The notes under the pieces: generated by a model
Told to the model about the DNA's origin: nothing
The model's database searches: none
Seen by the model: the letters and a program-made list of their open reading frames with translations, nothing else
Shown here: positions 12,395 through 35,315 of the stretch, piece after piece
Layout: each line of letters begins with the position of its first letter
How positions within the stretch are numbered: the first letter of the stretch is position 1
Origin: a plasmid
Strand: one strand, 5' to 3'
Sequence record: NZ_CP090684.1
Length of the DNA stretch: 64,000 nucleotides
Translations under genes and position numbers: made by a program

Positions 12395-12489
12395 GCGCCT
12401 CGTTGCAACTTGGCGAGCCCCAGAAATATAAATTTGGGTACACTTCCGAACTGATTATAATTTAGGTGACACGCGCTCTCAACATAGCA

Positions 12490-13668: not shown

Positions 13669-13680
13669 AGGACCGCCAGC

Positions 13681-15527: not shown

Positions 15528-15537
15528 GGAACCACCG

Positions 15538-16941
15538 ATGCTGATTACCCGTATTCGACGCCTCTTCACTTCGCTGGTCGTCACGGTGCTTTCCCTTCCC
15601 CTGCCGACAACGGCACAAACCTATGGCCCCGGCGCATGTTCCCCCGTCCCAGGGTCGCAGACTTGCATCGACACGACGCCGTGCAAAACGTCAGGCACTG
15701 GTCAGCAAATTTGCCTTTCCACTGCGACGCCGCCCGCAGGCGCACTGCAGGTCCCTTATAGCTGCTGGCAGTACTCCTACAGTTACGCTTGCACCGGCAC
15801 CACCGTCGACACCTGCGGTCAGTACCGCAGCAACTCAGCCTGCGGCGTGGTCGGTAGCGTTTGCAATGATACGATCGCCGAAACTGGGCAGTGCGACGAA
15901 TGGACGTATACCTACCGTTGTCAAACCAAGGCCGAGCAGACTGGCCAACAGATGAATTGCTCGAACGGTCTGTTTGACAACAGCGGCTTTCCGACGCCGC
16001 CGAACAACAACAACTCGTTCCTGACGGGAGCAATCGGGCTCGAACTGCTCGGTGAGGCACAGAAGTACACCGACGGCAATAGCATCTTCGCCGGGGTCGA
16101 GGAAAGCTGCAGAAAGGGTTACGAAGGAATCCAGAATTGCTGCAAGAGTACCCCTGGCGCGCAATCGAACAACATGGTAATGACAGCGGCCATCGGCGCA
16201 GCTGGTTCGGTCGCCAAGTATGCCGGCGAGAAGCTGATTGATCTCGCGTCGCCATACGTGTTCGACGCGATGTATACGAACGGAATTTTCTCCGAGGCGC
16301 TGACGCAGAACTTCACGACAGCATTCTCTCTTGATGCGGCCAATGGCGGCGGAACACTCGGTACTCAACTCGCTTCTGGCGGCATACAGTTCGGCGTATA
16401 TGGTTTCACGGTCGGGTTCGGAACGATGACCCCAGGGCTTTTCGGCGCGAACATGCAACTGGCTTCCTTCGGCTCCAACGGATACCTCGCGTTTAACCCA
16501 TATGTCTTCGCTGCGATGGTTGCAATTCAGGTCATCCAAGGCCTATCGAAGTGCTCGCAGGGCGAGCAGCTCCTGGCGCTTCATAAGGGTGCCGGTCTAA
16601 GCACGTTCATCAAAGAGGAGTGTGCCAAGAAGGCGCTGGGTGCCTGCGTTCAATACGTCGACACCTATTGTTCCTTCAACTCGCAACTCGCTCAGATCAT
16701 CAACATTCAAGGGAAGACGCAACTGGGCCTTCCGCTTGAGGGTTGCAGTGGCCTGACTCCGGACCAGATCAGCAAGATCGATTTCAAGAAGATTGACTTC
16801 AGTGCATTCTCGAGCCAGATGATGGATCAAGCTATGAAAGGCCTCCCGAAAAATATCACCGGGAATTACACACCGATCATGCAGAACACTCCGAGCGGAT
16901 CTTCCCAAAAGGGCGGCTCTGCCGTTCTTCCGACTTACTGA
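15538..16941 (+). CDS. traN: TraN (mating pair stabilisation) conserved C-terminal domain protein with its own signal peptide
   Basis: GAGGA Shine-Dalgarno 7 nt upstream of the ATG at 15538. Signal peptide MLITRIRRLFTSLVVTVLSLPLPTTAQ. C-terminal hallmark blocks NCCKS, SKCSQGEQLL, CVQYVDTYCSFNSQLAQIINIQGKTQLG, KIDFKKIDFSAF. Confidence 0.7.
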   Translation: MLITRIRRLFTSLVVTVLSLPLPTTAQTYGPGACSPVPGSQTCIDTTPCKTSGTGQQICLSTATPPAGALQVPYSCWQYSYSYACTGTTVDTCGQYRSNSACGVVGSVCNDTIAETGQCDEWTYTYRCQTKAEQTGQQMNCSNGLFDNSGFPTPPNNNNSFLTGAIGLELLGEAQKYTDGNSIFAGVEESCRKGYEGIQNCCKSTPGAQSNNMVMTAAIGAAGSVAKYAGEKLIDLASPYVFDAMYTNGIFSEALTQNFTTAFSLDAANGGGTLGTQLASGGIQFGVYGFTVGFGTMTPGLFGANMQLASFGSNGYLAFNPYVFAAMVAIQVIQGLSKCSQGEQLLALHKGAGLSTFIKEECAKKALGACVQYVDTYCSFNSQLAQIINIQGKTQLGLPLEGCSGLTPDQISKIDFKKIDFSAFSSQMMDQAMKGLPKNITGNYTPIMQNTPSGSSQKGGSAVLPTY

Positions 16942-16968
16942 TATACCAACAACGAGACCAGGACCTTC

Positions 16969-17301
16969 ATGAAAGCCAAAGTATTTGTGAAACGAGCGAT
17001 CTTCACTGTCGGAATCATCACGCTGCTTGCGTCGCTCGGCGCAGCTGCAATCGGTTACAAGCTGAACGTCAATTTGAGCAAACGGAACGCGGAGCAGGCG
17101 CGAGAAATTAGCGCACTGAAGGAGGACGTACGGAAGCTAGGCGAGCGTCTGTCTACCAGCGACGCCGAGCTCAAAGGGCTTCGGAACCAGGGGGACGCCA
17201 ACCAAGCGGAACTCAATAAACTCAAAGACAACGTTGATGCATTCGCTACCCAAGCAGCTGCGTGCGAGACCTTGCGCCGCTCGGTGAAGGGAGGTGCATA
17301 G
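16969..17301 (+). CDS. membrane-anchored coiled-coil protein (TrbE-like position)
   Basis: N-terminal TM helix followed by a heptad-rich segment. Follows traN as trbE does in F. No motif evidence. Confidence 0.4.
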   Translation: MKAKVFVKRAIFTVGIITLLASLGAAAIGYKLNVNLSKRNAEQAREISALKEDVRKLGERLSTSDAELKGLRNQGDANQAELNKLKDNVDAFATQAAACETLRRSVKGGA

Positions 17302-18211
17302 CGTGCCGCGCACTGACACGTTCATCGCGACGATCGCCGTTGCAGCGTCCTCGGCGATCGGCAGCGCAATGGCCTGCGCATCGCCTGTCGAGTTCGATAC
17401 AGCATCCGCGCACGTCATCGTCGCGCGTCCGATCGACAGTTGGTCTGGCGACTCATCGGCGCAGAAGCACTCCCTCGAGTCGCTCCGCGAGCGCAAGGTC
17501 TCCTACGACGTGATATTGGATGGCACCCGCTATCGCGGCAGTCCGCTCATTCTGCAGGGCATAAGCGACAACCCGATAACTCGCGGCGTAGAGGCAACCC
17601 TCGCCGAGGAACGGATCACGCTTGTGCGGAACGCGCCCTACCTCTTCCACGTCCTCGACGTGGCTACCTTCGCGGCCGACGCATACCCGACCTTCGCACG
17701 AGCTCAGGCCGAGTACTACAGGCGATTCGTAGAAAGAGCGGGGGACCCACGTACCCTGGCAACGCGGTACAACATCAAAGGGATGATCGGCAATGCCCTC
17801 TCTATTGGAGCACTGTTCTTACCGACCGGTAGCTTGGGCGTTGCAAATGGCGCTCAGGTGATGATGAATTCTGGTCTCGCAGAAGACATCGGCAAGCTTC
17901 CGCGCGGTTCGCGCGCGGCGCTGGTCCCAGTACGTTTGCCGGACCTCGATCCGGCGGCATATCGACAAATCGATGTGCGGCGAGTCGAATTCAAACCCGA
18001 CACCCCCGGAGAAATTGTTATCGCATACAAGGGGGAAAAAACCCCAGAGGCCGAGGCTGAAGCCTTGGTCCGTGCAATAGCGATTGTCGCGGGTGCTCAA
18101 ACCACCGCTGATGCCGTCGAATCGGCGCGGCGGGCCGATTTTCAAGAGCGCGTCTCGATTTGGGACGCATGTGTTAATGAAGGCAAGTGCCAAAATGGAG
18201 GCCAACAATGA
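17294..18211 (+). CDS. hypothetical protein, possibly lipoprotein-like
   Basis: Hydrophobic N-terminus with AMAC, an imperfect lipobox. No recognised domain. Confidence 0.45.
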   Translation: MHSVPRTDTFIATIAVAASSAIGSAMACASPVEFDTASAHVIVARPIDSWSGDSSAQKHSLESLRERKVSYDVILDGTRYRGSPLILQGISDNPITRGVEATLAEERITLVRNAPYLFHVLDVATFAADAYPTFARAQAEYYRRFVERAGDPRTLATRYNIKGMIGNALSIGALFLPTGSLGVANGAQVMMNSGLAEDIGKLPRGSRAALVPVRLPDLDPAAYRQIDVRRVEFKPDTPGEIVIAYKGEKTPEAEAEALVRAIAIVAGAQTTADAVESARRADFQERVSIWDACVNEGKCQNGGQQ

Positions 18212-18336
18212 CTGACTCGACCAAGCAACAAAAGCCCGTACCCAAGGTTCTGCGGAAGAATGGACTCCTGACCTGGGTCGCATTCGTGGCAATCCTCTTG
18301 GTCCTCGCCAACTCGTTCTGGAAGCATTTCGGCTAA
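18208..18336 (+). CDS. unannotated 42-aa single-TM peptide, translationally coupled to the upstream gene
   Basis: GGAGG 6 nt upstream. ATGA overlap with the stop of 17294..18211. Sequence MTDSTKQQKPVPKVLRKNGLLTWVAFVAILLVLANSFWKHFG. Below the 60-aa cut-off of the ORF track. Confidence 0.35.
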   Translation: MTDSTKQQKPVPKVLRKNGLLTWVAFVAILLVLANSFWKHFG

Positions 18337-18491
18337 CGCTGATAGCCCGGTCTGCAGCTCGCGGGCCGGGCGCGCCTCATGCAGGAACCGTGTCGACGAG
18401 GATCGACGCCCGACGAGAGGGCATTCGGCGAGGCGCTCAGTCTGCAATTGGTGCTGCGGCATGTCGATGCATGGACAGGACAGATAACGCG

Positions 18492-19145
18492 ATGGCAAGT
18501 GACGCTCATAAGCGGTTGGTAACGCTCGGCGAACGATGGCTTAAGCGGGAAGGTTTTTCAGTCGTTGCGACCGAGCTGGTCACAAGCGGCACGCGCGAGC
18601 AAGCCGATGTGATTGGTTTTCGATCGAACTGCTCTGCGGTGATCGAAGCGAAGGCGACGCGATCGGACTTTTTGGCCGACGCGCGGAAGCCACATCGCAT
18701 AAGTGGCGGGTTGGGCGTGTATCGATTCTACCTTTGCCCGCCGGACGTCATCAGAGTATCCGAATTGCCGGTGCGATGGGGGCTGTTGTATGCGGACCGC
18801 CGTGGCGTCCGCGAAGTCCTTCGGCCGACAGGCAACGGATGGCCATCGTTTCGATCGACGATCGGCGATTGGCCCGCGTTTCAACACGAACCAGACCTAG
18901 AAGCAGAGCGCGGCGTCCTCTTTTCTATTGCGCGCCGACGCTCACTTTCCCGTTCTGACGAATTGTACGAACGGAAGTTGCAGGACGCGACACGTCGCGC
19001 AGACCGGCTCGCACGCGAGAACGCCGCTCTGGCGGAGAACATACGGCGGCTGGAACTCGCGCTCTATCTGGCTGAGCGCGGCCTCAATGCCGGTGTCCCG
19101 GACGCGCACGAATTAAAATCCGCGATACGACGGAAGGTGGCATAG
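18492..19145 (+). CDS. PD-(D/E)xK nuclease family protein (MmcB-like)
   Basis: E...D (ADVIGF) ... VIEAKATRSDF is a classic D / E-x-K triad arrangement. C-terminal coiled coil. Start taken at Met35 (alternative 18471). Confidence 0.5.
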   Translation: MASDAHKRLVTLGERWLKREGFSVVATELVTSGTREQADVIGFRSNCSAVIEAKATRSDFLADARKPHRISGGLGVYRFYLCPPDVIRVSELPVRWGLLYADRRGVREVLRPTGNGWPSFRSTIGDWPAFQHEPDLEAERGVLFSIARRRSLSRSDELYERKLQDATRRADRLARENAALAENIRRLELALYLAERGLNAGVPDAHELKSAIRRKVA

Positions 19146-19326
19146 CGTTGTGGGCCGGCTAAGTTATAGCCTCGTTGAGCACCAACTGAATGAATCGGAG
19201 ACGCAAGTTAACGCCTCTGACGCACGAAGGTCGCGTCCGCGCGAGGGACGGCTTGCCGATCGGATTGATCGAAGATCGCTAGAGATTGCATAGCTCGGAA
19301 AGCGGTACGCCGCATTGGGGGTATAG

Positions 19327-19551
19327 ATGACACGAGTAACGTGGAAGCAAACGGTGCGAGGCGCGGAAATCCGCCTGGTCAGTAAGATCAAAGCCATCGA
19401 GGGGTGGCGTAACTTGTGGATGACACCGTTCTACGCATGGCTGCGCCGCAGTGTGCTGCACAAAGAGGAAGCTTGGATCGTTGCAGAGTGCAAACTCGAA
19501 GCGCTGCGTATGCGCCACGATCGCATCGTACGGCGCTATTCGCACTTTTAG
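19327..19551 (+). CDS. hypothetical small protein (74 aa)
   Basis: Protein-like composition in a lower-GC island. Weak Shine-Dalgarno. Confidence 0.3.
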   Translation: MTRVTWKQTVRGAEIRLVSKIKAIEGWRNLWMTPFYAWLRRSVLHKEEAWIVAECKLEALRMRHDRIVRRYSHF

Positions 19552-19572
19552 TAAGTTTGAGTGAGGGAAATA

Positions 19573-19779
19573 ATGACGATCCGCGTGATCGAAATTCCGT
19601 TCGTCCAACTCGGTGCCGACAGGCCGGAGTCGCAGACCAATGCAGCGATCGATGCGCTGAATTCTGCGATCGCGCGTGACGGCCTTGAGGTCCTGTCGGT
19701 CGAGACGGTTACGGTTCCGCGGTTCTTGTGGCTTGGAACCAAGGTGGTCGGTATCCGCGCATGGTGTCGGACACAATAG
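19573..19779 (+). CDS. hypothetical small protein (68 aa)
   Basis: Strong Shine-Dalgarno GAGGGAAATA before the ATG. Lower-GC island. Confidence 0.4.
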   Translation: MTIRVIEIPFVQLGADRPESQTNAAIDALNSAIARDGLEVLSVETVTVPRFLWLGTKVVGIRAWCRTQ

Positions 19780-19954
19780 CGCATTCCTATCGAAAACACC
19801 GATAAATTAGTTTATGTAAAATGGGGCCCTAACTATTGTTCTGCCGCTCGCCTTCGTTCTCGCCACTCCGGGCACGCAGACGTCTCGGGACGTCAATTTC
19901 TGACACAAACAGATCTGCAAAGTGGCGGGCACCCAACTCTCATATTGCAATGAA

Positions 19955-20140
19955 ATGACGCCGCTCACTATCCAAGCTCTCGTCACTGTCGCCGCAACGC
20001 TCATCGTCCTGGTTATCGGGGTGATCGGGGTAAAGAAAGCCGATCCGCTCATGGTACTTGGTGCGGTGTTCCTCGCAATCCCAACGGTAGGTCTTGGCTA
20101 CGGGGTCTGCCTTCGAGCGCTCGCTGCCCTTATTGGATAG
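19955..20140 (+). CDS. small two-TM membrane protein (61 aa)
   Basis: Two hydrophobic helices (LTIQALVTVAATLIVLVIGVIGV and LMVLGAVFLAIPTVGLGYGV). Confidence 0.35.
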   Translation: MTPLTIQALVTVAATLIVLVIGVIGVKKADPLMVLGAVFLAIPTVGLGYGVCLRALAALIG

Positions 20141-20675
20141 GTCGCGATATGCACCGATTCGAGGGTCGACTCGCTTGCCGCCCAAGGGTACGCGAGGACC
20201 GACCCAGCAATTCAGCCTTTCGCGGTCGATGCGAGGGTGGCGTGGACCGCGGGGTTCGTTCGCCGACTGGGTCGCGAAAGCAGCGCCGATGGCGGTGGAG
20301 TTTCCGGCACCAAACGTAACGGCCGGGCGCAAATGTCGGTCGGACCGCTTCAGTATCGGGTACTGGCGCTCTGCCGAGTTGGGCATGGGCTTCTTTTTGG
20401 CGACTGACTTCAACGAGATCGACGATCGCCTCAACGTTGTAACGCCCATGCTCTTCCACAGCGCCGCCCCCATTTCAGTTCACATTGCGACACAAAGCTT
20501 CACGGTTCGGCGCCGCCCGGCGTACGGCAAGAGAGAGCGCGTTGCTGGCTCGATCCAAATTGTCAGAATCCGTAAAACGTTTGCGCGAGACTTCCGTAAC
20601 CTCTCGTTTTCCCCTAAATTAGCGATGCCTCAGGCCGTCGGCCTGGCCGGCAGAACCTGAGACGAAGGAAGAACA

Positions 20676-22826
20676 ATGAGTTTCGCTCCGAATGGCGGTC
20701 TTCCGACCGGCCTCGGTGGCAGCCCACTTGGGGCTTTGACGCCGATCAGCAGCGCCCTGGGCGGCCTCGGCGGCTCGCTCGCCTCCGGCGTCGGCGGCCA
20801 GCTGGGCCCGCTGGCGGGCTTGGCCGGGCACGTCGACACCCTGCAGCGCGCGACGCAGCTCGCGCAGACCGGCTTTTCTTTGATGGAGAAGACGCCGGGG
20901 GCGATCGCCGCGGCACTGAACAACGCGACCGGCACCGCGCGCCTGACGCAACTGAACCGCTACGCGACGATCGATACGCCGCTCGGCCCCGACGTGCTGC
21001 TCCTCAGCGCCGCGATCATCGATGAACACGTCAATCGCCTGCCGGAAATCCACCTCGACCTGCTGTCGCACCAGCACGATCTCACGCCGGATCAACTGAT
21101 CGGCCAGCAGGTCAAGCTCAAGCTCGACCACAACGCGCGACAGTCCACGCTCGAGCGCATTGTCGCGGCCGGCGCGACCGACAACGAACGCTACTTCGAC
21201 GGCTACGTGTCCGCGTTCGACCGCGTCAGCCACCCCGGCCGCGTGACCCAGTACCAGATGACGGTGGTGCCGTGGTTCTGGTTCCTGACGCGCTCGACCG
21301 ACTGCCGAATTTTCCAGCACAAGACTGCGCAGGACATCCTGAACGAGATCTTCCTGGAACACGGCTTTTACGACTTCGTGTTCGACATTCGCACCGAGCA
21401 AAAGCCGCTCGAGTACATCGTGATGTACCAGGAGTCCTATTTCAATTTCTGCACGCGCTTGATGGAGCAGGAAGGCTTGATCTGGACGCACCGCTACGAG
21501 AAGGACAAGCACTTCCTGGTCATCGGTGACACGAACTTGCTGTTTCGACCGATCGACGGGCTCGCGACCGTACCGTATGCAGCCAGCCAATCAAGTGAGT
21601 TCAACGGGATTGACCAGTTGTACGAGGGCCGTCGCTTCGGGGTCGGCAAGGTCACATACCAGGATTTCAATCACCAGAATCCGTCGTCGCCGCTGATGCG
21701 AGTCGAAGCGAGCCCGGAGAACTTGAAGCACGCGCGGCTCGACTCGACCGAGCGCTTCGAGCATCAGTCGCTGTACGACCACGGTGACGACGGCAATCGA
21801 TATGCTCGTCTGGCCATGCAAGCCGAGGAAGCGCAGGCGCACCGCTATGCGGGCGGTGGCTATGCGTGGCGGATGACAACCGCCGGGTGCGTGACGGTCA
21901 CCGGTCACCCAGTGCCGGCGAACAACCAGGAATACGTAATCCTGCACGTGCGCCACGAAGTCGTGAACGACTACACGCAGCACGAAACGAAACTCCCCTA
22001 TCGCAACAGCTTCGCGCTGCTGCCGAAGAAAATTTCGTACCGGGCGCCGCGTATCACCCCCAAGCCGGTGATCCACGGCACGCATTCGGCCAAGGTGGTT
22101 GGCCCGAAAGGCGAGGAGATTCACACCAACGGCAGCTGCGTGAAACTGCACTTCCCCTGGGATCGGCGCGGCAAACAGGACGGCTCGGACTCGATGTGGG
22201 TGCGGGTGTCGCAACCATGGGCGGGCGATGGCTGGGGCGCGGCAGCGATTCCGCGGATACACCAGGAAGTGCTGGTCGCCTTCAATCAGGGGGACCCGGA
22301 TAATCCGGTAGTCGTGGGCCGCGTATACAACGGCGAGCAAAGCAATCCGTACCACGGCGCCGGCGGTCAAACTATGGGGATCAAGAGTCAGACGCACAAG
22401 GGCGCGGGCTCGAACGAGTTGCGTTTCTCCGACGTGAACGGCCAGGAAGAGTTCTTCATGCACGCGCAGAGGGACATGAATACCGTGGTCGAGAACAGCG
22501 AGACGCACAAGGTGCTCGGGCCGCTGCGCACCGTCCTGATCGCAACCGGCAGCGAAGAAAAGCAGATTCCGCAGGGCAACCTGACCGAGACGATCGCCGA
22601 GAAGCGCAGCACCACAGCCACTACCGTCGAAGTGACGACGCCGGCGAAGGACGGTGGCGGCGGCACGCAGGTCTACATGGCCGAGCGCGGCATCTTGCTG
22701 AAGGTCCAGGACAGCTCGATCTCCCTTGCACCGGAGGGCATCCGCCTCGAGCACAAGGGCTCCGTGATCCTGATGACCGACGACGGCGTGATGGTCAACG
22801 GCAAGCGCATCGACCTCAACAAGTAA
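20676..22826 (+). CDS. vgrG: type VI secretion tip protein VgrG (no C-terminal effector domain)
   Basis: gp27/gp5-like VgrG core blocks (e.g. VVPWFWFLTRSTDCRIFQ). 716 aa. Unusual ~80-aa Gly-rich N-terminal extension. Confidence 0.9.
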   Translation: MSFAPNGGLPTGLGGSPLGALTPISSALGGLGGSLASGVGGQLGPLAGLAGHVDTLQRATQLAQTGFSLMEKTPGAIAAALNNATGTARLTQLNRYATIDTPLGPDVLLLSAAIIDEHVNRLPEIHLDLLSHQHDLTPDQLIGQQVKLKLDHNARQSTLERIVAAGATDNERYFDGYVSAFDRVSHPGRVTQYQMTVVPWFWFLTRSTDCRIFQHKTAQDILNEIFLEHGFYDFVFDIRTEQKPLEYIVMYQESYFNFCTRLMEQEGLIWTHRYEKDKHFLVIGDTNLLFRPIDGLATVPYAASQSSEFNGIDQLYEGRRFGVGKVTYQDFNHQNPSSPLMRVEASPENLKHARLDSTERFEHQSLYDHGDDGNRYARLAMQAEEAQAHRYAGGGYAWRMTTAGCVTVTGHPVPANNQEYVILHVRHEVVNDYTQHETKLPYRNSFALLPKKISYRAPRITPKPVIHGTHSAKVVGPKGEEIHTNGSCVKLHFPWDRRGKQDGSDSMWVRVSQPWAGDGWGAAAIPRIHQEVLVAFNQGDPDNPVVVGRVYNGEQSNPYHGAGGQTMGIKSQTHKGAGSNELRFSDVNGQEEFFMHAQRDMNTVVENSETHKVLGPLRTVLIATGSEEKQIPQGNLTETIAEKRSTTATTVEVTTPAKDGGGGTQVYMAERGILLKVQDSSISLAPEGIRLEHKGSVILMTDDGVMVNGKRIDLNK

Positions 22827-22852
22827 TCGAACACGCACGACTATAACCTGCC

Positions 22853-23326
22853 ATGCACTACGCTATCCACGAAGGGACCTTCGACTTGCCGGACGCGGCG
22901 CTCGACCGCACCGTCAACATGCTAATTCTTCCGATCGGGACGGGTGGCTTGAGCCTGGTCGTGTCGCGCGGCCGATTGCGCGACGCGGAGTCAATCGACG
23001 CCTTCGTCGATCGGGAATGGGGACTGGCGTCGCGCACTGCCAAGGACCTCACTCTGCAGACCCGACGGCCGGTGACAGTAGGACGGAACGAGTGCCCGGG
23101 CGTCCAGACAGAATCCACGCACGAACAGGACGGTCGCACGTTTCATCAACACCAGACGGCGTTTCAGCTCGACGCCGGTGGCCATGTGATCGTCATGACG
23201 TTGACCAGCGCGGCGCCGCTGACCGACGAACAGCGTGCGCTCGCGAACCGGATGCTCGAGAGTTTCGAGCCGCGCCCTCACGACCCCGCGGCGCCCTCGC
23301 TCGTTTCCGATAGCCACCGCCCATGA
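22853..23326 (+). CDS. DUF1795 (DcrB-like) Eag chaperone for a prePAAR effector
   Basis: N-terminus MHYAIHEGTFDLPDAALDRTVNMLIL matches the DUF1795 signature M..NEG.F.LP..W.D.T.N. Immediately precedes and overlaps the Rhs gene. Confidence 0.75.
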   Translation: MHYAIHEGTFDLPDAALDRTVNMLILPIGTGGLSLVVSRGRLRDAESIDAFVDREWGLASRTAKDLTLQTRRPVTVGRNECPGVQTESTHEQDGRTFHQHQTAFQLDAGGHVIVMTLTSAAPLTDEQRALANRMLESFEPRPHDPAAPSLVSDSHRP

Positions 23327-26300
23327 GTCAGCCCGCCGCGCGCAAGGACGACCCGTTCACCCACACTACCCTGATGGGTGACCTGATTGGCATGGGGGGC
23401 TCGCTGCTAGCCGGCATGGGCATCGGCTGGTTGCTGACTGAGGGCGCCCTGCTTGCTGCGGCCGCCGTGCTCGAAGTCGGCACGGCCGGCCTGGCTACGC
23501 CGCTGGTGCTCGCGATTGGCGTGGGCGTTGCCGCCACCATGCAGGCCTCGGGGCTGAACGACAAGATCGACGAGGCCGCGAAGGGGCTCGGCAATGCGAT
23601 TTCACCGCCGCAAGAAAAAGGCCACATCAAGAGCGGCTCCCCGGACGTGTTCATCAACGGCGAACACGCTGCGCGTGCGGCGGACGGCGCCGACATGGAT
23701 ACCGTCGAATGTCAGGACCATCCTGGCCCGCAGATGATCGCGCAGGGTTCGGAGAGCGTCTACATCAACGATCTGCCCGCCGCACGTGTTGACGACAAGA
23801 CCACCTGCGACGGCACGATCTCCAAAGGATCGCCCAACGTGTTCGTGGGTGGCGGCACGAAAACGGTACGCGACATCAGCGCGGCGCGGCCGTGGGTTGC
23901 CTGGCTCGGTATGGCAATCGGCATTGCGCTCGCGCTGTGCGGGCGCGGAAATATGAAGTGGGGCAACCTGAAGGGCAAACTGCCGTGCCTCGGGATCGGC
24001 CTGTTGGCCGGTCTCGGCGGCACCCTCCTCGGCAGTCTGATGAGAGGCCACCCGGTCAACGTCATCACCGGCGGCAAGATCCTGGACGGTGCTGACGACA
24101 CCGACTTCGAACTGCCGGGCCCGCTGCCGATCGTCTGGCGGCGCTTCTACAGCAGTCACGACGATCGTGCGGACAGCCTGTTCGGACCGGGATGGAGTGT
24201 GCCGATCAGCGTAGAGCTGCAGCTTGTGCGCGAACGCGGCGAAGTCGTGTCGATCACGTACTGGGACGAACAAGGTCGCGACATCGTGTACCCGGCCGTG
24301 TCGCCCGGTGAAAGCTACTACAGCGTGCCGGAGGGCATGTATCTGATCTGCACTGCAGGCGGCCACTACGTGGTCGAAACCGTCGACGGTCTCTATCGCG
24401 ACTTCGGGCGTGCGCGGACGATTGCGGACACCGAGACGCTAAAGCTGCGGCGCCTTGAGGATCGCAACGGCAACTGGATCGAAGTGACGCACGAAACGGC
24501 CGGCGACGTCATCCGACCGGCCCGGTTGCACGACAGTGCTGGGCGCCTGTTGACGCTAGCCTACGACAATGCACACCCGCAGCGGATCGCCGCTGTCGAG
24601 CTGACGCTCGGCGTCGACGGCGAACAATCTGAGACGCTGGTGCGCTACGCGTATACCGACGCCGGCGAGTTGGCCGCCGTAACCGACCGCAGCGGGCATA
24701 CCGGCCGGAAGTTCGTATACGAGCACGGCCTGATGGTCCAGCATACGCTGCGCGGCGGCTTGAAGTGCTTCTATGCCTGGCAGGGTACAGGCCGCGACGC
24801 GCGCGTGGTGCGCCACTGGACCGACGACGGCGAAGCCTACACGTTCGATGCGGATCTGACCCAGCGCGAAGTGACGATCACCGACCAACTCGGGCGCATC
24901 ACGCGGTGGACGTGGAACGAGGATCGGCAGCCGACTCATCACGTAGATGCGGAAGGCCACGTGTGGCTGCTCGAGTGGAACGCGATGCGCCAATTAATTA
25001 GCGCGACCGACCCAGCCGGCCATGTGACGCGCTTCGAATACGACGAACGTGGTCGCCAGACCGCGCGCATCGACGCGCTCGGCCAGACTGCGCGCACCGA
25101 GTGGAACGGTTTTTATGACCTGCCGGTAGCAGAAATCGACCCGACCAATGCACGCTGGATCTACCGTTACGACGCGCGCGGCAACCTGACGATGACGCGC
25201 GATCCAGCGGGCTTCGCCACCGAGTATCACCGCGACGAGCGCGGCCTCGTGCACACGATTCGCGACGCGCGCGGCGGCTACAAATTTCTCGCATGGAATG
25301 CGCGCGCGCAGCTGACCTCCTATACTGACTGTTCGGGCAAGACCACTCGTTTCGAGTACGACGCGCGCGGTGCACTCGCACGCGTGACCGATGCCGCCGG
25401 CCATGCCACCGTGTACGAAGCCGATGCGATGGGTCGCGTGACGGCAATAGCGACCGCCGACGGCGCACGCCAGACGTTTCATTACGACGACGCCGGCCGG
25501 CTAGTCGAAGTCGTCGCCCCTAACCAGCGACGTACACGCTACGAACTGAATCCGCGCGGCCTGCTGCTGTCGCGAACCGATGCAGCGGATCGTGTCGTGC
25601 GCTTCGGCTACGACAATGCGTTCCGGCTCGCAAGCCTGACCAACGAGAACCGCGAAACCTATCGCTTCCGCTACGATCGCCGCGACCTACTGATCGAGGA
25701 AGTCGGGCTCGACGGCAACGTGCGCGCGTACGAATACGATATGCGCGGGCTGGGCATCGCGCTGCGCGAGGGAAAGCGCCAGACCATATTTGAACGAGAT
25801 GCGATCGGTCAGCTCGTCGCCAAGCAAGCCGCACGCGAGCGCTGTGAATACCGTTACGACAAGGCGGGTCGGATCGCAGCGGGCGAACTGTACGCGCTCA
25901 CGGGTCGCAAACCGTCGCTGAAGAATCGCGTTACCCTAAAATACGGCTCGCGCGGCGAGGTGCTCGAGGAGTACACGCCGACCGGATGGCTGGCGCACAC
26001 CTACGACGAGCTCGGCAATCGCGTCAGCACCACCGTCTCGGGGCAACAGACCATCGATTGGTTGCATTACGGCTCCGGACACGTGCACCAGATCCGCGTC
26101 GACGGCGCCGCGATCGCCGACATCGAGCGCGACGATCTGCATCGGGAGGTGCTGCGCACGCAGGGCAAACTGACCAGCCAGTTCGGCTACGACGCCGTTG
26201 GTCGCCGCGCGCGAGCGGCGGCGCAGCGCGGCGCATCGGCGGAAGTACTGCTCGCAAAGCAGTGGCAATATGACGCGGCGGGCGACGTCGTCCAGAAGCG

Positions 26301-27588
26301 TGATCAGCGCTACGGTACGACGAGCTACAGGTACGACCCGACCGGCCGCATTGAGCAGGCGACGGGGCCAGGCCTACCGTCCGAGGTGTTCCGCTGGGAT
26401 GCCGCCGCGAATCTGGTATCGAGTGACCACCCGGGTGGATACGTCGAATACAACCGGCTCAGGATGTTCGACGACAAGCGCTTCGAGTATGACGCGTACG
26501 GGCGGCTCGCGCGCAAGCTCAGCGGCCACGGCCCCGCCAGAGAGCAGACGTTCGAATACGACGACTGGAATCAGCTGAAGACCGTCGTGACGAAGGACCG
26601 GCTCGGCGTGTCGACCACGCACTTCGAATACGACGCGTTCGGTCGCCGCATCCGCAAGCTCAACGGCAGCTACTCGAGCACGGATTTCCTGTGGGACGGC
26701 ATGCGGCTCGTGCAGGAGACGTATCACGACCGGTGCGGCGAAGAGGCGCTGACGTATCTGTACGAAGCAAATAGCTACGCCCCGCTCGCACGGATCGATC
26801 ACGCTGCGCCGGCGGCCAACGACGCGGAGGCTCGAGATGCTGTCTATTATTTCCATAACGACGTGTCTGGATTGCCGGAGGAACTGACCGACGCTGACGG
26901 CGAGCTGGTCTGGCAGGCCCGCTACAAGGTGTGGGGCAACGCAGTTCAGGAGGAGTGGATCGCGCGTGCGCCGCAGCAACCTGCGGCTGCATGGGGGGAA
27001 GTGCAAACGGCGGCGACACCGGGCCACGTGCCGCGGCCGCAGAACCTCCGCTTCCAGGGCCAGTATTTAGACCGCGAGACCGGGCTGCACTACAACACGT
27101 TCCGCTTCTACGATCCCGATATCGGACGGTTCATCAACCCCGACCCGATTGGTCTGAACGGCGGCCACAACTTATACCGCTACACACCTAATCCGATCAC
27201 CTGGATCGATCCATGGGGATGGGCAGGATGTACGCTGACCAAAGCCAAATCGAAGGACTATGATTACACTCTGCGGTTGAAGCGATCCGAATATCCCCAG
27301 ACGTTCGGGCATATCTCTGATGCTATCGGCAATGGACACGCGGATATCGTGACCGTTCAGAGAGGCAGCGCGAAGCTGAATCGGAAGCTCAGTCTGGCCG
27401 GCATAAAGACCAAGGCCGGCATGGACCGAGACGAGTGGCCGATGGCGATGTTCAAGGAAGGTGGTGATGGCGCAAGCGTGAGATATATTGACCCAAGCGA
27501 TAACCGCGGTGCCGGATCAAGCATCGGCAACGCGTTGTCTGATTTGCCAGACGGAACAAGAGTAAAGGTAGAAATTTTCGATGAGTGA
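23323..27588 (+). CDS. rhs: prePAAR-PAAR-Rhs T6SS effector with a NucA/NucB-like DNase C-terminal toxin
   Basis: prePAAR AARKDDPFTH (AARxxDxxxH). Two TM regions, a PAAR domain and many YD/RHS repeats. Core ends at PxxxxDPxGL-like DPDIGRFINPDPIGL...IDPWGW near nt 27210. The ~120-aa C-terminus contains DRDEWPMAMFKEGGDGASVRYIDPSDNRGAGS, matching the B. subtilis NucB motif as recalled. GC drops over the C-terminus. Confidence 0.9.
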   Translation: MSQPAARKDDPFTHTTLMGDLIGMGGSLLAGMGIGWLLTEGALLAAAAVLEVGTAGLATPLVLAIGVGVAATMQASGLNDKIDEAAKGLGNAISPPQEKGHIKSGSPDVFINGEHAARAADGADMDTVECQDHPGPQMIAQGSESVYINDLPAARVDDKTTCDGTISKGSPNVFVGGGTKTVRDISAARPWVAWLGMAIGIALALCGRGNMKWGNLKGKLPCLGIGLLAGLGGTLLGSLMRGHPVNVITGGKILDGADDTDFELPGPLPIVWRRFYSSHDDRADSLFGPGWSVPISVELQLVRERGEVVSITYWDEQGRDIVYPAVSPGESYYSVPEGMYLICTAGGHYVVETVDGLYRDFGRARTIADTETLKLRRLEDRNGNWIEVTHETAGDVIRPARLHDSAGRLLTLAYDNAHPQRIAAVELTLGVDGEQSETLVRYAYTDAGELAAVTDRSGHTGRKFVYEHGLMVQHTLRGGLKCFYAWQGTGRDARVVRHWTDDGEAYTFDADLTQREVTITDQLGRITRWTWNEDRQPTHHVDAEGHVWLLEWNAMRQLISATDPAGHVTRFEYDERGRQTARIDALGQTARTEWNGFYDLPVAEIDPTNARWIYRYDARGNLTMTRDPAGFATEYHRDERGLVHTIRDARGGYKFLAWNARAQLTSYTDCSGKTTRFEYDARGALARVTDAAGHATVYEADAMGRVTAIATADGARQTFHYDDAGRLVEVVAPNQRRTRYELNPRGLLLSRTDAADRVVRFGYDNAFRLASLTNENRETYRFRYDRRDLLIEEVGLDGNVRAYEYDMRGLGIALREGKRQTIFERDAIGQLVAKQAARERCEYRYDKAGRIAAGELYALTGRKPSLKNRVTLKYGSRGEVLEEYTPTGWLAHTYDELGNRVSTTVSGQQTIDWLHYGSGHVHQIRVDGAAIADIERDDLHREVLRTQGKLTSQFGYDAVGRRARAAAQRGASAEVLLAKQWQYDAAGDVVQKRDQRYGTTSYRYDPTGRIEQATGPGLPSEVFRWDAAANLVSSDHPGGYVEYNRLRMFDDKRFEYDAYGRLARKLSGHGPAREQTFEYDDWNQLKTVVTKDRLGVSTTHFEYDAFGRRIRKLNGSYSSTDFLWDGMRLVQETYHDRCGEEALTYLYEANSYAPLARIDHAAPAANDAEARDAVYYFHNDVSGLPEELTDADGELVWQARYKVWGNAVQEEWIARAPQQPAAAWGEVQTAATPGHVPRPQNLRFQGQYLDRETGLHYNTFRFYDPDIGRFINPDPIGLNGGHNLYRYTPNPITWIDPWGWAGCTLTKAKSKDYDYTLRLKRSEYPQTFGHISDAIGNGHADIVTVQRGSAKLNRKLSLAGIKTKAGMDRDEWPMAMFKEGGDGASVRYIDPSDNRGAGSSIGNALSDLPDGTRVKVEIFDE

Positions 27589-28069
27589 CAATCTCAGCCA
27601 AACGGTTGATCTCCTTATTTCCCATAGTCAGATTCTGGTGCGGTCTCGACCCTATGACGAAGGTTTGAGCCAATGGGGAACGGGAAACATTGATCAGGGC
27701 GCGGTCTTGCATGCCGACTACCTCATTTTTGACCCGCTTCCGGACGATGCCTTCGGCGCAAAGGTCTACCTGCAAGTGCTGGACAAGTTCGAGATGGACG
27801 AGCGGGCCGCTCGGTGCATCGTTGCTCCCTTTCATATTACGGATCGTAACGCGCTCGAAGTCGCTTCCGCGACCGAAAAATTCAAAATCTCGCTGCAACT
27901 ACCGCTTAATGCTTACGACGTGTATTACGAGGTTTGCGAAGGCGACGAAGTTTTCTACAAATTTACGTTTGTCTCAGAAGCCAAGCATCATCAAGCAAAA
28001 TATTTGCGAGATGATCCCTGGGGTGGGAAAAAAGACATGCCTCTTGTTTCTGGGAAGTTCGATAGATAG
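27581..28069 (+). CDS. cognate immunity protein for the Rhs C-terminal toxin (putative)
   Basis: 8-nt overlap with the rhs stop. Markedly lower GC. 162 aa with no signal peptide. Confidence 0.6.
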   Translation: MSDNLSQTVDLLISHSQILVRSRPYDEGLSQWGTGNIDQGAVLHADYLIFDPLPDDAFGAKVYLQVLDKFEMDERAARCIVAPFHITDRNALEVASATEKFKISLQLPLNAYDVYYEVCEGDEVFYKFTFVSEAKHHQAKYLRDDPWGGKKDMPLVSGKFDR

Positions 28070-28092
28070 TTCGCCTTATCGGTGTCTGCGAT

Positions 28093-29157
28093 ATGAGCAG
28101 AGCTGATCGTTCTGACGCAGCCAAATTGGACGCCAGCCTCCGCTTTCGGTTGGCTGAAGCATTGAGTAAAAGTGCGCTCGCCGACGATCCGCGTTATGAG
28201 CGCTTGCCTGCTTTCGTCCGCTTCCGCGCGACAGGCGCGGCCAAAGCGTGGGAAGCGTGGCGCCGGGTCGTCGAACAGGGGCCGAACAACGTATCGGAGA
28301 TGCTGCGCACACGCTCGATCGTTGCACTGGTCAACCAGTTTGACGAGCTTGCAAAACGGCTGCTTCCATACGGCACCCCGGAAATGATGCCGGACGAGGC
28401 CGGAACAGTTGCAGCGCATAGTGCGATCTGGCAGGCGTTCGACCTCCGGAACGGGTTGATTTTCGAACCCACTCCGCCCCTGCATCGCCTGCTCGACGAC
28501 TCGTACATTTCTGACGATGTGCCGATCGGCGCCGTCGAGTTTCCCGCCGACACACTGTGCATCATTCCGGAGCCCTCGTCTTGGGGTCAAGGGGAGCGTA
28601 GTGACGCCACAGTCTTTTTCAGGAACGGGCAGACCTTGGGCTGTGCCACCTGGATCATGCGCCTTCACGACGGCCAGCGAGACGCGACGATTGACGTTGT
28701 CGAGCTGCCGTTGGACAAGCCGGATCGGACCATCGGCGCGTTGCTCGACGAGGTTTGCGGATCGTCGAAAACCTATCAAACGCTCCGCGCGTATCTGCGC
28801 GAATCAATCGACTACGCGGTCAAGATGCTCCTGTATCTCAAAGCCCGCGACGCAAACGTGGTCCATGAGCGCCCCTACTCCGATGCACCGCGATCGTTCC
28901 CTGGGCTAGGTCAGCGAAAGCGGAACGAGCGCCTAGCCGAAATCGACATGCTCTACGATCGGCACCTTATCGGGCCTGCGATTCTTGATGTCGACTCAGC
29001 AGGCAGTGTGCCGACGGAAGCTTCGGTCCACGAAGTACGCGGTCACTGGCGCCGCCCGCATTTCCGGATGCAACCGCACGGTCCGCAGGCATCGCTGCGC
29101 AAGCTGGTCTTCATTGGCCCGACGATCGTGCGGCCCGATCGCCTTGGTCTTTTGTGA
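28093..29157 (+). CDS. hypothetical protein (354 aa) downstream of the effector/immunity pair
   Basis: Long ORF with protein-like composition. No recognised domain. Confidence 0.45.
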   Translation: MSRADRSDAAKLDASLRFRLAEALSKSALADDPRYERLPAFVRFRATGAAKAWEAWRRVVEQGPNNVSEMLRTRSIVALVNQFDELAKRLLPYGTPEMMPDEAGTVAAHSAIWQAFDLRNGLIFEPTPPLHRLLDDSYISDDVPIGAVEFPADTLCIIPEPSSWGQGERSDATVFFRNGQTLGCATWIMRLHDGQRDATIDVVELPLDKPDRTIGALLDEVCGSSKTYQTLRAYLRESIDYAVKMLLYLKARDANVVHERPYSDAPRSFPGLGQRKRNERLAEIDMLYDRHLIGPAILDVDSAGSVPTEASVHEVRGHWRRPHFRMQPHGPQASLRKLVFIGPTIVRPDRLGLL

Positions 29158-29341
29158 TTGCTGCTGAGGTAGTGTCACGAGCGAGCACGATGGAAAGCAG
29201 AAAGTGTCCGCTGCGACGCACCTGTCGACCGGCTTGACTAGAGAGATGTAGTTGCCGCTGCGGACTAAAAAGTTGCGGACGCTGTCGCTCGAACCCGGAG
29301 ATGAGCATCACCGCTAATGGCCGGTTGCACCGGCCGCCAGA

Positions 29342-32818: not shown

Positions 32819-33288
32819 ACCCCACTGAAGTCGAAGAATGCTGTCGCAGTGAATCCCGTTTCCCCTGCTTGCAGCGGGATGACAAGGCGTACCGGTTCGC
32901 TTTCAAGGCGGTCGCGATGTGCGTATTCTGTCGCTCGATAAAGCAGCGTGCGAACGGTGCGACTTCCTGATCGCAAGTACACGCGAATTGCTGGGTAGAG
33001 CATCGTGGGTTTGCTGCTCGCCAGTTGCAATTCGACGGTTGCTGTCTTCCCGTTATGCGCAAGCACGCGGAGATCCGATACCGTGACTGTGGTCACCTGG
33101 TGGTCCTCGGGTAGATAACGGATCGCTCGAATTTCAGCGATTTCCGCAGCTGATAGAACTCGCGTTGCGCCGTCCTGGCGCCCTATCCAATCCGCAGCGA
33201 TGCCCCACAGTTGAGAGGAAAACAACCAGCTTACGATGACGGCGCCCGCGGCTACCATCAGCAGCCATTTTCGAAATAGCGACTTCAT
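32815..33288 (-). CDS. membrane-anchored hypothetical protein
   Basis: N-terminal TM helix. Stop overlaps the traI start. No homology recognised. Confidence 0.4.
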   Translation of the reverse strand: MKSLFRKWLLMVAAGAVIVSWLFSSQLWGIAADWIGRQDGATRVLSAAEIAEIRAIRYLPEDHQVTTVTVSDLRVLAHNGKTATVELQLASSKPTMLYPAIRVYLRSGSRTVRTLLYRATEYAHRDRLESEPVRLVIPLQAGETGFTATAFFDFSGV

Positions 33289-35315
33289 CAGAACAACCCC
33301 TCATTTTCTTGCGAGACCGGCTCTCGACCGTCGCTATGTTCATCGCCACGCCCGACGTCGGCTGTCGGAAGCATCACTTCGCCAGTGTCTAGATCGGTGA
33401 CGATCCACTTTCCCTGCGTCGTTACGGCCGCCGTCGGACTGGTTGCCGCTGCCGCTGCCGCTGCAGCAGCTTGGGCCTTCATTGCTTCCGCCTCGGCCCG
33501 GACGCTTTCTATCGCATCTTGACCATCCGCGGCGGATATCTTGAACCGCGGATCGCGTGGCGGGTCCGGCTGCCTCTCGCGGAATCGCAAGGTTCGTGGC
33601 CACGGTCGATACCATCGAGGTAGCCAGTGGCGGTAGTTCACCAATGCCGGCGGAAAGTCACCGGCAACCTGAACGTATGCCATGCAGTTTTTCAGCAACC
33701 CAATCTTCGATGGCATGACCACCCACTTTTCGCGCTCGTCCTGGCTAAGCTGCCCCCCGTCACGCCAATCGGTCACGGCGATCGCCTGTCCCGCCCTGAC
33801 TACGGCTGTCTCACTCTTCCCCAAGCGCCGCGCCATTCGCTCCTGCATGTTCGGTTCATTGAGACGGAGCGTAACAGTGGTGTTGAAGCAGTTCATTAGC
33901 GTTTCGGCGCGGTCCGCACCCATGGACGTATTGAACTGCTTGTCTGCTTGAATGCCAGCGGCGACGCAAACCCCGTACTTCCGCAACTCCGCTTGCCGGG
34001 CGTCCAGCTTGATGTCACCAAGGACATGCGTTTCATCAAGAAAAAACCAATAGCGGTCCTCGTGACGAATTTCCCGGCGCGCGGCAATCGTCTGAAATGC
34101 CATCGTGATCAAGAGGCGAAATAGCGGTGCGAACATCGCATACGTGTCCTCGGTGCCGATGAGGAAAAGTCGCGTGTCGTCGTCCTTTTCGTAGAACTCG
34201 CGGAGCGTCCAAGTGCCGTCCTGAACCGCGGCGATTCCGTTCAAGTAGATGGCGATTGAACTGATCACCCCTTGACGCTGCCCCTTGGAGTCGCCGCCGA
34301 CTGCCGAGCTCGCAACAGAATTCTTGATCAAGAGCTCAAGCTCGTCCTCCGGCATGGAAAGGATGGCCTCGGAAATCAGGCGGGTATAGACCGCCCCGCG
34401 TTGACGCAAGCGTAAGGCCATCACCGAAAATAGCACTCGCGCTGCGTCCTCAAAGAATGCGCTCGCACCATGCACGACCCCCGCCTTAGGCGGCAAGAAT
34501 GCGTGTGCAAGCGTGTCCGAATCGTAGGTGTTCTCCATCTCCATGAACATCGACCAAGGGACCGAGCCAAGCAGGGCGGGATTAAAGAACAGGTCTTTTC
34601 CGGGACGGTAGTACGCTCGAAAGTATTCGCCGGCATGATCGTAAATTACCGACTTTCGGCCGCGCGCGAACACCTGGCCCATAAGATCGTGAATACCCAA
34701 CGATTTGCCTGTTCCTTGCGCCCCGACAAACATAATGCCCTGCATCGGCGCAGATCGAGGAAGGGCCACGTCAAGGACGGTATACGGCCCCGCCTCCTCG
34801 CGGCGTACAGCTTTCGACAGCTCTTCAGCCGAGACGACGTCCAACGCTCCGTCGACGCGCTTGTTCTCACGAGCCCGCCGACCGAGCCGCGCAAGGGACC
34901 GCCAAACCGCGTAATAGCCGGCCGCACCAAGTCCGACGCTGACCCACGCGACATATCGGAATGCCGTGACTGGCCGAGCAAGGTCGGGTACAACGTTCCT
35001 AAACTGAGGGGGAGTTAACCACTGGGCGAGCTCGCCGTCGGATTTGACGACGGTGAGGATCTTTTTCTCCCCAACACCATCGCGAATCCGCCAGCGTCGC
35101 GGTACCTCCTGATCGACGACGTGGGACAAGATATTGGCCTTAACGAGGTCGACATCATGAGCAGTAAGCGTGTTCATCCACCAGACGCTCGGCAGAACCA
35201 TCGCCGGCAACGCCCCGACAAAAAATGCCATCGAGGCAGCATGGACAGTCAGCTTGACCCGAGTCATGAAAAGCGCGCGTCCCGCGCCGGCATCGGAGAT
35301 TACCTTTTCGGTCAT
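33288..35315 (-). CDS. traD: type IV coupling protein TraD/VirD4 family
   Basis: Two N-terminal TM helices. Walker A FVGAQGTGKS. Walker B-like FFLDETH. Ala-rich acidic C-terminal tail. Confidence 0.8.
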   Translation of the reverse strand: MTEKVISDAGAGRALFMTRVKLTVHAASMAFFVGALPAMVLPSVWWMNTLTAHDVDLVKANILSHVVDQEVPRRWRIRDGVGEKKILTVVKSDGELAQWLTPPQFRNVVPDLARPVTAFRYVAWVSVGLGAAGYYAVWRSLARLGRRARENKRVDGALDVVSAEELSKAVRREEAGPYTVLDVALPRSAPMQGIMFVGAQGTGKSLGIHDLMGQVFARGRKSVIYDHAGEYFRAYYRPGKDLFFNPALLGSVPWSMFMEMENTYDSDTLAHAFLPPKAGVVHGASAFFEDAARVLFSVMALRLRQRGAVYTRLISEAILSMPEDELELLIKNSVASSAVGGDSKGQRQGVISSIAIYLNGIAAVQDGTWTLREFYEKDDDTRLFLIGTEDTYAMFAPLFRLLITMAFQTIAARREIRHEDRYWFFLDETHVLGDIKLDARQAELRKYGVCVAAGIQADKQFNTSMGADRAETLMNCFNTTVTLRLNEPNMQERMARRLGKSETAVVRAGQAIAVTDWRDGGQLSQDEREKWVVMPSKIGLLKNCMAYVQVAGDFPPALVNYRHWLPRWYRPWPRTLRFRERQPDPPRDPRFKISAADGQDAIESVRAEAEAMKAQAAAAAAAAATSPTAAVTTQGKWIVTDLDTGEVMLPTADVGRGDEHSDGREPVSQENEGLF

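Follow-up and report, generated by a model that had tools for sequence, protein, structure and literature searches.

We analyzed a stretch of 64,000 nucleotides from the plasmid record NZ_CP090684.1 (the window), in which positions 20676-29157 are occupied by five co-oriented and tightly packed genes. The first four of these (20676-28069) form a type VI secretion system (T6SS) cassette encoding a VgrG protein, a chaperone of the Eag type (DUF1795), a prePAAR-PAAR-Rhs effector of class II and an immunity protein from the ComJ family. A previous annotation made from the letters of the window alone, here called the sequence-only reading, had described an orphan T6SS cargo set with VgrG, Eag, Rhs and immunity genes at this position, and family matches confirm all four. 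The last open reading frame (ORF) of the interval is not an immunity gene; it belongs to the AcrVA2/FinQ family and falls outside the toxin-immunity logic within which that reading had framed the locus. The features of the interval are as follows.

20676-22826, plus strand: vgrG (tssI), 716 aa; Phage_GPD (1e-72), Phage_base_V and Gp5_trimer_C domains, TIGR03361 (2e-145)
22853-23326, plus strand: eag, DUF1795/DcrB chaperone, 157 aa; DcrB/DUF1795 match (5e-28), resembles the SciW and EagT6 structures
23323-27588, plus strand: rhs, the whole effector, 1421 aa
23323-27222, plus strand: rhs, N-terminal loading region and Rhs cage (prePAAR, first transmembrane (TM) domain, PAAR, second TM domain, DUF6531, YD shell, RHS core)
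27223-27588, plus strand: rhs, C-terminal toxin of about 121 aa with a NucA/NucB (Tox-ComI) deoxyribonuclease (DNase) domain
27581-28069, plus strand: comJ, ComJ/Nin-family immunity gene, 162 aa; PF11033 match (2e-15, 57 bits)
28093-29157, plus strand: gene of the AcrVA2/FinQ family, 354 aa, with its start 23 nt past comJ; motif HWRRPH (H318, R320, H323)

The vgrG gene lies upstream of eag at a spacing of 27 nt, and the stop and start codons overlap at the eag/rhs and rhs/comJ boundaries. The C-terminus of VgrG has no effector or adaptor extension. In the effector, the prePAAR motif AARKDDPFTH, which fits the pattern AARxxDxxxH, is located at residues 5-14, and two hydrophobic regions (residues 20-75 and 188-240, approximately; Kyte-Doolittle peaks at 30-70 and 194-231) bracket the PAAR domain (residues 96-166 or 96-175, depending on the delimitation). 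RHS repeats and the RHS core follow this part, and the core ends at the DPWGW (residue 1300) of a cleavage motif, DPxG...DPWGW (PDPIGL...IDPWGW), that spans residues 1273-1300. The best solved relative is RhsA from P. protegens (7Q97), which was matched with an E-value of 1.5e-244 across residues 121-1301. The assignment to class II prePAAR effectors, as made in the sequence-only reading, is upheld by the motif, the two TM regions around PAAR, the Rhs cage and the adjacent eag gene.

The RhsA-EagR1-VgrG1 system of P. protegens and the Rhs1-SciW system of Salmonella display the same gene order, vgrG-eag-rhs-immunity. They also have in common with the cassette the prePAAR motif, a TM region on each side of PAAR, the Rhs cage and the DPxGW cleavage site near the C-terminus, and an alignment of the Eag protein with Salmonella SciW scores 1e-15. 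Unlike these systems, the cassette in the window contains a NucB-like toxin and an appended AcrVA2/FinQ-like gene, and it is carried by a conjugative plasmid, away from any T6SS core cluster.

The C-terminal toxin aligns with B. licheniformis NucB (5OMT) and with 6EJS at an E-value of 2e-35 over 102 residues (phmmer), with an intact DE motif (DRDEWP) and a likewise conserved SDNRGAGS stretch, and it matches PF14040 with 25.9 bits as compared to a cutoff of 23.8. The ComJ-family gene is located directly 3' of the toxin, with its start within the end of rhs, and Burkholderia sp. IMCC1007 also has this toxin-ComJ pair, with 94% identity for the toxin and 85% for ComJ. The Tox-ComI/Imm-ComJ pair was defined by Zhang et al. 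(2012), with Imm-ComJ as the cognate immunity family; RHS-linked, T6SS-exported Tox-ComI members with ComJ immunity were already listed for proteobacteria in that study, and a parallel was drawn with the competence nuclease of B. subtilis and its inhibitor ComJ. Homology to NucB and the Tox-ComI classification together identify the toxin as a predicted metal-dependent, non-specific DNase of a known polymorphic-toxin family. It resembles the members of the Tox-ComI/Imm-ComJ and NucA-Nin (ComI-ComJ) pairs and NucB (5OMT) in that it aligns over the whole length of mature NucB and has a ComJ-family partner. However, the nuclease is here the cargo of an Rhs cage, whereas NucA and NucB are secreted or membrane nucleases of competence or sporulation. 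No experimental study of a T6SS-delivered Tox-ComI was found in the literature, where queries for NucB-type T6SS toxins gave false positives through strings such as "Nuc^BB22".

The sequence-only reading had placed the cassette inside the transfer region of a conjugative element, between the type IV secretion system genes and the relaxase, and the positions of traN, the relaxase and the type IV coupling protein (T4CP) agree with this.

15424-16941, plus strand: traN
15424-19168, plus strand: traN and three backbone ORFs, the end of a stretch with 99.4% identity to the B. multivorans plasmid NZ_CP048444.1
29342-32818, minus strand: MOBF (TrwC-type) relaxase-helicase, 1158 aa
33288-35315, minus strand: T4CP (TrwB/TraD-type), with a 157-aa ORF between the relaxase and this gene

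The rest of the window encodes an F-type conjugation system (TraC, TraF, TraH, TraG, TraN and a VirB11-like ATPase) and, farther along, ParB, DUF5710-Toprim, PLD and SRAP genes. Family scans covered the ORFs of at least 150 aa, and among these no T6SS families were identified besides those of the cassette, as expected from the earlier claim that T6SS core genes are absent from the window. The relaxase, the T4CP and the mating-pair formation genes are located on the same element as the cassette, and relatives of this element are typed as MOBF/MPF_F conjugative plasmids. The window matches pBMUL01-type plasmids, the cassette proteins are annotated as plasmid-borne in B. multivorans, and an identical Rhs protein is encoded on at least 24 contigs, including CP000871.1 of B. 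multivorans ATCC 17616 (pBMUL01).

In the supplement of a recent preprint, NC_010070.1 (apparently pBMUL01) is listed with a single T6SS gene (tssI, WP_012211021.1) in the class "Orphan island, tssI island" (Quinonero-Coronel and Garcillan-Barcia, 2025). A T6SS-1 is reported on the chromosome of strain ATCC 17616 (BMULJ_00300-00329), and for B. multivorans CGD2M a T6SS-1 is predicted, against which disruption of tssC1 was used in competition assays. As far as sequence and literature go, the suggestion that the core genes are absent from the replicon and that a T6SS is encoded on the host chromosome is favored by this listing and by the T6SS-1 of ATCC 17616.

We searched for homologs of the module with one genome per species and identified the vgrG-eag-rhs module in the chromosomes of at least 12 species of the Burkholderia cepacia complex. 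The sequence identity to the chromosomal clusters is 84% for VgrG (over all 716 residues), 64-83% for Eag and 81-85% for the Rhs core, and the C-terminal toxins vary. Homology at the DNA level to chromosomal auxiliary clusters extends from about position 20574, approximately 100 nt before the ATG of vgrG, to about position 27220 at the end of the Rhs core, and in Burkholderia sp. IMCC1007 it continues through the toxin and ComJ. The VgrG protein is also 73-74% identical to VgrG of plasmid pBPSE01. Wherever examined, a tssF paralog is located directly upstream of vgrG, as in B. anthina (full-length, PF05947 at 1e-115), pBPSE01, pBcp895-1 and a chromosomal island of B. pseudomallei. A search for a tssF remnant in the 535-bp gap upstream of vgrG (tblastn with TssF of pBPSE01) gave no match. 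Judged from these alignments, the module is a copy of a chromosomal auxiliary cluster of the Burkholderia cepacia complex, minus the usual tssF.

Full-length tssF paralogs were also observed beside orphan vgrG clusters that are located far from T6SS core loci (L017, 7985-9868; L001, 17992-19872; L011, 13005-14885; L086, 7862-9736; L090, 9163-11040). Some of these units have tssF upstream of vgrG, whereas in others it follows the AcrVA2-like gene, which gives the impression of a circularly permuted unit. Clusters of tssI with tssF homologs in B. cenocepacia have been mentioned previously (Spiewak et al., 2019).

The left and right boundaries of the module could be placed within two short regions.

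20141-20675, no strand: upstream intergenic region, 535 bp, with the left edges of the shared block and of the homology, and a conserved leader
29158-29292, no strand: tail of the transferred block; 29170 is the last position homologous to B. territorii, and 29292 the last one homologous to the chromosomal island of B. pseudomallei

The gap of about 500 bp that had been noted upstream of vgrG as non-coding is present (535 bp), but its last 62 nt are a conserved leader shared with the chromosomal homologs. This leader (20614-20675, immediately before the ATG) is conserved in ten of the ten aligned vgrG upstream regions, from plasmids as well as chromosomes, and contains the element CTAxATTA, a GC-rich, hairpin-like palindromic stretch, the invariant sequence GAACCTGAGA and the ribosome-binding site AAGGAA. 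The leader may serve these homologs as a common promoter or as a regulatory element of the 5' untranslated region. Scans for sigma-70 promoters and terminators gave no signal above the level of shuffled sequences, the ORFs called in 20141-20675 span the junction and have no family match, and searches for direct or inverted repeats bounding the cassette returned only short pairs at chance level. The left edge of the block that is common with B. territorii is at position 20469, and the right edge of the B. pseudomallei homology, 29292, is 50 nt from the stop codon of the relaxase gene.

Three small ORFs with only weak, sub-threshold family matches are located in 19169-20140, between the conserved backbone and the cassette. 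One of these, 19922-20140, has a 60%-identical homolog beside the different cassette of NZ_CP048444.1 and therefore marks the left edge of the cargo slot. The lower GC content ascribed to this flank by the sequence-only reading is found, albeit marginally (0.557 vs. 0.583 for the backbone), but the main signal is a cassette of high GC content with a toxin and immunity gene of low GC content, as can be seen from the overall GC content and the GC content at third codon positions (GC3).

Backbone: GC 0.58, GC3 about 0.66 (relaxase, traN, traG)
vgrG to Rhs core: GC 0.63-0.65, GC3 0.79-0.84
Toxin: GC 0.54, GC3 0.61
comJ: GC 0.50, GC3 0.55

This profile agrees with a mosaic origin of the cassette.

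We compared the module to a contig from B. territorii, which contains a block corresponding to positions 20469-29170 at 95% identity and differs in both flanks. The ratios of nonsynonymous to synonymous substitutions (dN/dS) were estimated to 0.087 for vgrG, 0.159 for eag, 0.102 for rhs, 0.106 for comJ and 0.146 for the fifth gene (28093-29157), with dS values of 0.15-0.20 throughout. Purifying selection acts on each of the five, and the uniform dS values together with the low dN/dS ratios show that the block diverged as one unit in which each gene was constrained. The B. territorii contig (L084, 1-6344) additionally encodes a large protein (about 4825 aa) in which RHS repeats and LysM were identified; its gene is on the opposite strand, 3.6 kb upstream of the cassette copy.

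These data bear on the alternative that the module is passive, hitchhiking cargo that is not used by the T6SS of B. multivorans, for example because the cognate tssF gene is absent or because the genes are not expressed. It would account for the absence from the window of the tssF gene that is located directly upstream in the examined chromosomal homologs, pBPSE01 and pBcp895-1, and for a promoter signal that does not exceed chance, but it sits poorly with ORFs that are all intact and coupled through their start and stop codons, with dN/dS ratios of 0.09-0.16, with an identical sequence on at least 24 contigs and with the retention of the conserved 62-nt leader. Other copies that lack tssF also persist, in B. 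territorii and B. pseudomallei, and we regard passive carriage as improbable.

The slot occupied by the cassette is used for other cargo in related plasmids. Positions 1-19168 of the window are 99.4% identical to the B. multivorans plasmid NZ_CP048444.1 (P2Bm2011a), in which ISBmu23 is found past that point, together with genes for a VgrG that is unrelated to the one in the window (23% identity), for an alpha/beta hydrolase, for Tli4 immunity and for PAAR. In pBPSE01, a syntenic plasmid from B. pseudomallei, the slot between traN and the relaxase gene contains tssF, VgrG, an ankyrin gene, Eag, Rhs and Imm26, and VgrG cassettes are also present in B. gladioli Co14 p1 and B. humptydooensis pMSMB43 (both MOBF/MPF_F). 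All four plasmids are related, belong to the MOBF/MPF_F type and have a VgrG-effector-immunity cassette in the vicinity of the relaxase or the transfer genes, and three of them have an AcrVA2-like gene at the 3' end of the cassette. They differ from the window in having other VgrG lineages and effectors (Rhs-Imm26, alpha/beta hydrolase with Tli4, and others) and, for pBPSE01, in the retention of tssF. The presence of different toxin sets in one slot of near-identical backbones points to rapid swapping of weapons between strains and species. A further plasmid, NZ_CP090706.1, was considered as an empty-site comparator and set aside as uninformative due to rearrangements by insertion sequences.

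As emphasized in the sequence-only reading, the plasmid could be the main beneficiary of the cassette. In this view, the cassette would be less a host weapon aimed at other species than a contact-dependent device for addiction or kin exclusion, by which non-carriers and plasmid-free segregants are eliminated. The toxin and the immunity protein are co-inherited on a conjugative element, conjugative plasmids are enriched in orphan islands according to the 2025 preprint, and the refilling of the slot with other toxin-immunity sets in near-identical backbones is what would be expected if exclusivity were selected. Yet, the killing of non-carriers also removes recipients for conjugation, and near-identical modules occur in chromosomes, where plasmid addiction is irrelevant. 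A device of this type is moreover compatible with a host weapon, such that the sequence does not separate the two, and we consider it unlikely, though worth keeping in mind, that the plasmid is the main beneficiary.

Our preferred interpretation, with a probability of roughly 75%, is that the cassette represents a putatively functional orphan (auxiliary) T6SS effector module that is carried as cargo by a pBMUL01-type MOBF/MPF_F conjugative plasmid of B. multivorans. The gene content, the descent from a chromosomal cluster, the slot shared with other VgrG cargo and the purifying selection make up the observed part of this explanation. By analogy with RhsA/EagR1/VgrG1, the Eag chaperone would shield and stabilize the two TM regions of Rhs, PAAR would cap the trimer of the plasmid-encoded VgrG and thereby mount the effector, and the spike would be fired by the chromosomal T6SS-1 of the host. 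Autoproteolysis in the Rhs cage would then free the DNase in neighboring cells, while ComJ would neutralize it in plasmid carriers, as modeled on NucA-Nin. At the population level, carriers would kill neighbors that lack ComJ, plasmid-free kin included, and transconjugants would gain the weapon and the immunity jointly. The AcrVA2/FinQ-like protein is predicted to lower the expression of some target through the polypeptide-directed loss of mRNA that characterizes its family. It can reasonably be inferred that the cassette would arm and immunize recipients, or act in addiction, as was proposed in the sequence-only reading.

Several points weigh against this interpretation. The compatibility of the plasmid-encoded VgrG with T6SS-1 of B. 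multivorans is suggested by orthologs in other species, and no close match to this VgrG was found in the representative genome of B. multivorans in GTDB. The chromosomal homologs usually have tssF next to vgrG, which is missing here, and if that TssF protein is needed to dock the spike, the plasmid copy could be handicapped. The killing of potential recipients conflicts with conjugative spread. Finally, NC_010070.1 is only apparently pBMUL01, an identity with which neighboring WP accession numbers agree.

Plasmid-borne orphan islands had been described as rarely documented by the sequence-only reading, but this is not borne out by the published survey. In the 2025 preprint, 272 plasmids are reported to carry only orphan islands of hcp, vgrG or PAAR, 55.8% of which are conjugative, with an enrichment of MOBF relaxases (Quinonero-Coronel and Garcillan-Barcia, 2025), and the description as rare is therefore wrong. 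Auxiliary clusters on conjugative plasmids of Ralstonia have likewise been published (mBio, 2024). The window has in common with these published cases that an effector island led by vgrG, and devoid of core genes, is located on a MOBF/MPF_F plasmid. In the passages of the two sources that were covered, there is no mention of the Eag-Rhs-NucB/ComJ content, of a shared insertion slot bounded by traN and the relaxase or of a companion gene of the AcrVA2/FinQ type. The cassette is one well-resolved example of an already catalogued class, and the companion gene and the refilled slot are its newest content.

Some additional observations concern other parts of the plasmid. The T4CP gene (window equivalent 33288-35315) is split by a DDE transposase in some assemblies (loci L007 and L008, at about 15.1-16.9 kb), and because of this interruption these variants are probably no longer self-transmissible but have retained the T6SS cassette. 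Beyond the relaxase operon (41499-44155 and 52197-53990, both on the minus strand), we identified genes for a nuclease of the PLD family, for a DUF5710-Toprim protein and for a protein of 597 aa that has a PAPS-reductase domain, and this region may represent leading-region cargo for establishment or anti-defense. The largest unannotated gene of the window is an ORF of 823 aa (45827-48298, minus strand) that has no Pfam match and shares part of its sequence with an overlapping ORF of 632 aa on the other strand. The plasmid also contains a gene for an SOS-response-associated peptidase (SRAP, YedK-like) at 61579-62373.

The fifth gene of the interval encodes a protein of 354 aa whose precomputed Pfam family is PF26125, "AcrVA2-like", and both its profile membership and its fold place it in this family. 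Searches with its sequence against the local copy of Pfam, NCBIfam, PADLOC and PDB (phmmer and profile) gave no real match, and in structure-based alignments it is about 11-14% identical to AcrVA2 (7CI1). Across 42 homologs, there is little or no variation at H318, R320 and H323, and these residues have the same spacing as H286, R288 and H291 of AcrVA2, to which they may correspond. To our knowledge, there is no Cas12a system in these hosts. In the study of AcrVA2, the residues H286, R288 and H291 were required for activity, the activity of the family was described as polypeptide-directed loss of a target mRNA (Cas12a for AcrVA2, with tra genes suggested for FinQ), and the family was found to be widespread on mobile elements without Cas12a. 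FinQ is a fertility inhibitor of IncI/F-like plasmids that inhibits the transfer of the F plasmid. The gene in the window differs in niche from FinQ and from AcrVA2, the anti-Cas12a protein of Moraxella bovoculi, by being located at the 3' end of VgrG auxiliary clusters, often beside PAAR and tssF.

The protein is 79% identical to its counterpart in pBPSE01 and only about 45% identical to the one in NZ_CP048444.1, despite a backbone that is 99.4% identical to that plasmid, and the gene has therefore been exchanged along with the cargo. The possibilities that it is a second immunity gene or purely a backbone gene were discarded on account of these identities and because it moves with the cassette. 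In pBMUL01 of ATCC 17616 and in one other assembly, the AcrVA2-like gene is split by an IS21-family element (IS408-like, with IstA and IstB), which is inserted at about 15535-18200 of loci L004 and L006 (CP000871.1) and provides a natural knockout for comparison with the intact allele of the window.

In all contexts that were opened, a homolog of the AcrVA2/FinQ-like gene (33-55% identity) is located at the 3' end of a cluster of VgrG, effector and immunity genes. The contexts include the following, in which X denotes the AcrVA2/FinQ-like gene.

P. aeruginosa: VgrG, PLD, Sel1, Sel1, X
R. solanacearum chromosome: VgrG, Tle3, ..., PAAR, X
R. solanacearum megaplasmid: VgrG, DUF2169, ..., X
B. gladioli: VgrG, DUF4123, VasX_N, DUF6708, PAAR, X, TssF
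B. pseudomallei chromosome 2: Tn3, TssF, VgrG, Eag, Rhs, Imm, X, integrase
Robbsia plasmid: X, adjacent to T6SS genes
B. humptydooensis plasmid: X, adjacent to T6SS genes
B. contaminans plasmid: X, adjacent to T6SS genes

Each of the 11 contexts that were called or annotated contains T6SS genes, and together these contexts represent Burkholderia, Ralstonia, Robbsia and Pseudomonas and include unrelated effector types. The order PAAR, AcrVA2/FinQ-like gene, TssF is recurrent (loci L001, L002, L084, L086, L088-L090 and L091-L146 examined), and the gene is usually located on the same strand as the preceding gene, mostly at a distance between an 8-nt overlap and +43 nt, with larger gaps of 247 and 686 nt in two contexts. 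In a scan of metagenomes, VgrG, PAAR or TssF was identified in 24 of 24 loci, and VgrG was located upstream on the same strand in 18 of them; the loci counted are those with at least 5 kb of upstream sequence, and several are near-duplicates rather than independent samples. By comparison, no AcrVA2/FinQ-like gene was found within 10 kb in any of 70 loci of this VgrG lineage (68 loci from representative genomes and two plasmid loci), and the gene therefore marks a subset of the auxiliary clusters, apparently the mobile ones. The linkage of the AcrVA2/FinQ gene to VgrG clusters appears not to have been described so far, and our literature search found no paper that names both AcrVA2 and VgrG.

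We tentatively suggest that the AcrVA2/FinQ-family gene is a conserved, co-transcribed terminal part of mobile VgrG modules in Burkholderiaceae and Pseudomonas that silences mRNA to the benefit of the module, with candidate targets such as a rival spike or baseplate component, a host defense, or functions in plasmid transfer or T6SS that conflict with the cassette. With equal caution, the module, in which the tssF paralog would be optional, could be what is exchanged, as one unit, between chromosomes and conjugative plasmids. It is also conceivable, at somewhat short of even odds, that the gene is an ordinary conflict gene of mobile elements, for anti-defense or fertility inhibition, which has become a neighbor of T6SS islands through shared variable regions and has no functional tie to them. 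The widespread occurrence of the family on mobile elements, including FinQ with its inhibition of F-plasmid transfer, its absence within 10 kb of all 70 loci of this VgrG lineage and its disruption by IS408 in ATCC 17616 without loss of the plasmid are all in line with such a role. Less easily explained in that manner are the short distance that in most contexts separates it from a preceding gene (PAAR, immunity or other) on the same strand, the presence of T6SS genes in all 24 metagenome loci and all 11 contexts across four genera and unrelated effectors, and the identity of only about 45% on backbones that are 99.4% identical, that is, the swapping of the gene with the cargo.

Taking the cassette as a functional auxiliary module, the conjugative plasmid of a cystic fibrosis pathogen would thus carry a predicted ready-to-load T6SS spike together with a putative DNase toxin and its antidote. 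If the linkage of the fifth gene to VgrG clusters reflects function, a newly described form of gene silencing, triggered by recognition of a nascent polypeptide, would be tied to interbacterial warfare, and the AcrVA2/FinQ family would have natural, testable targets outside CRISPR.

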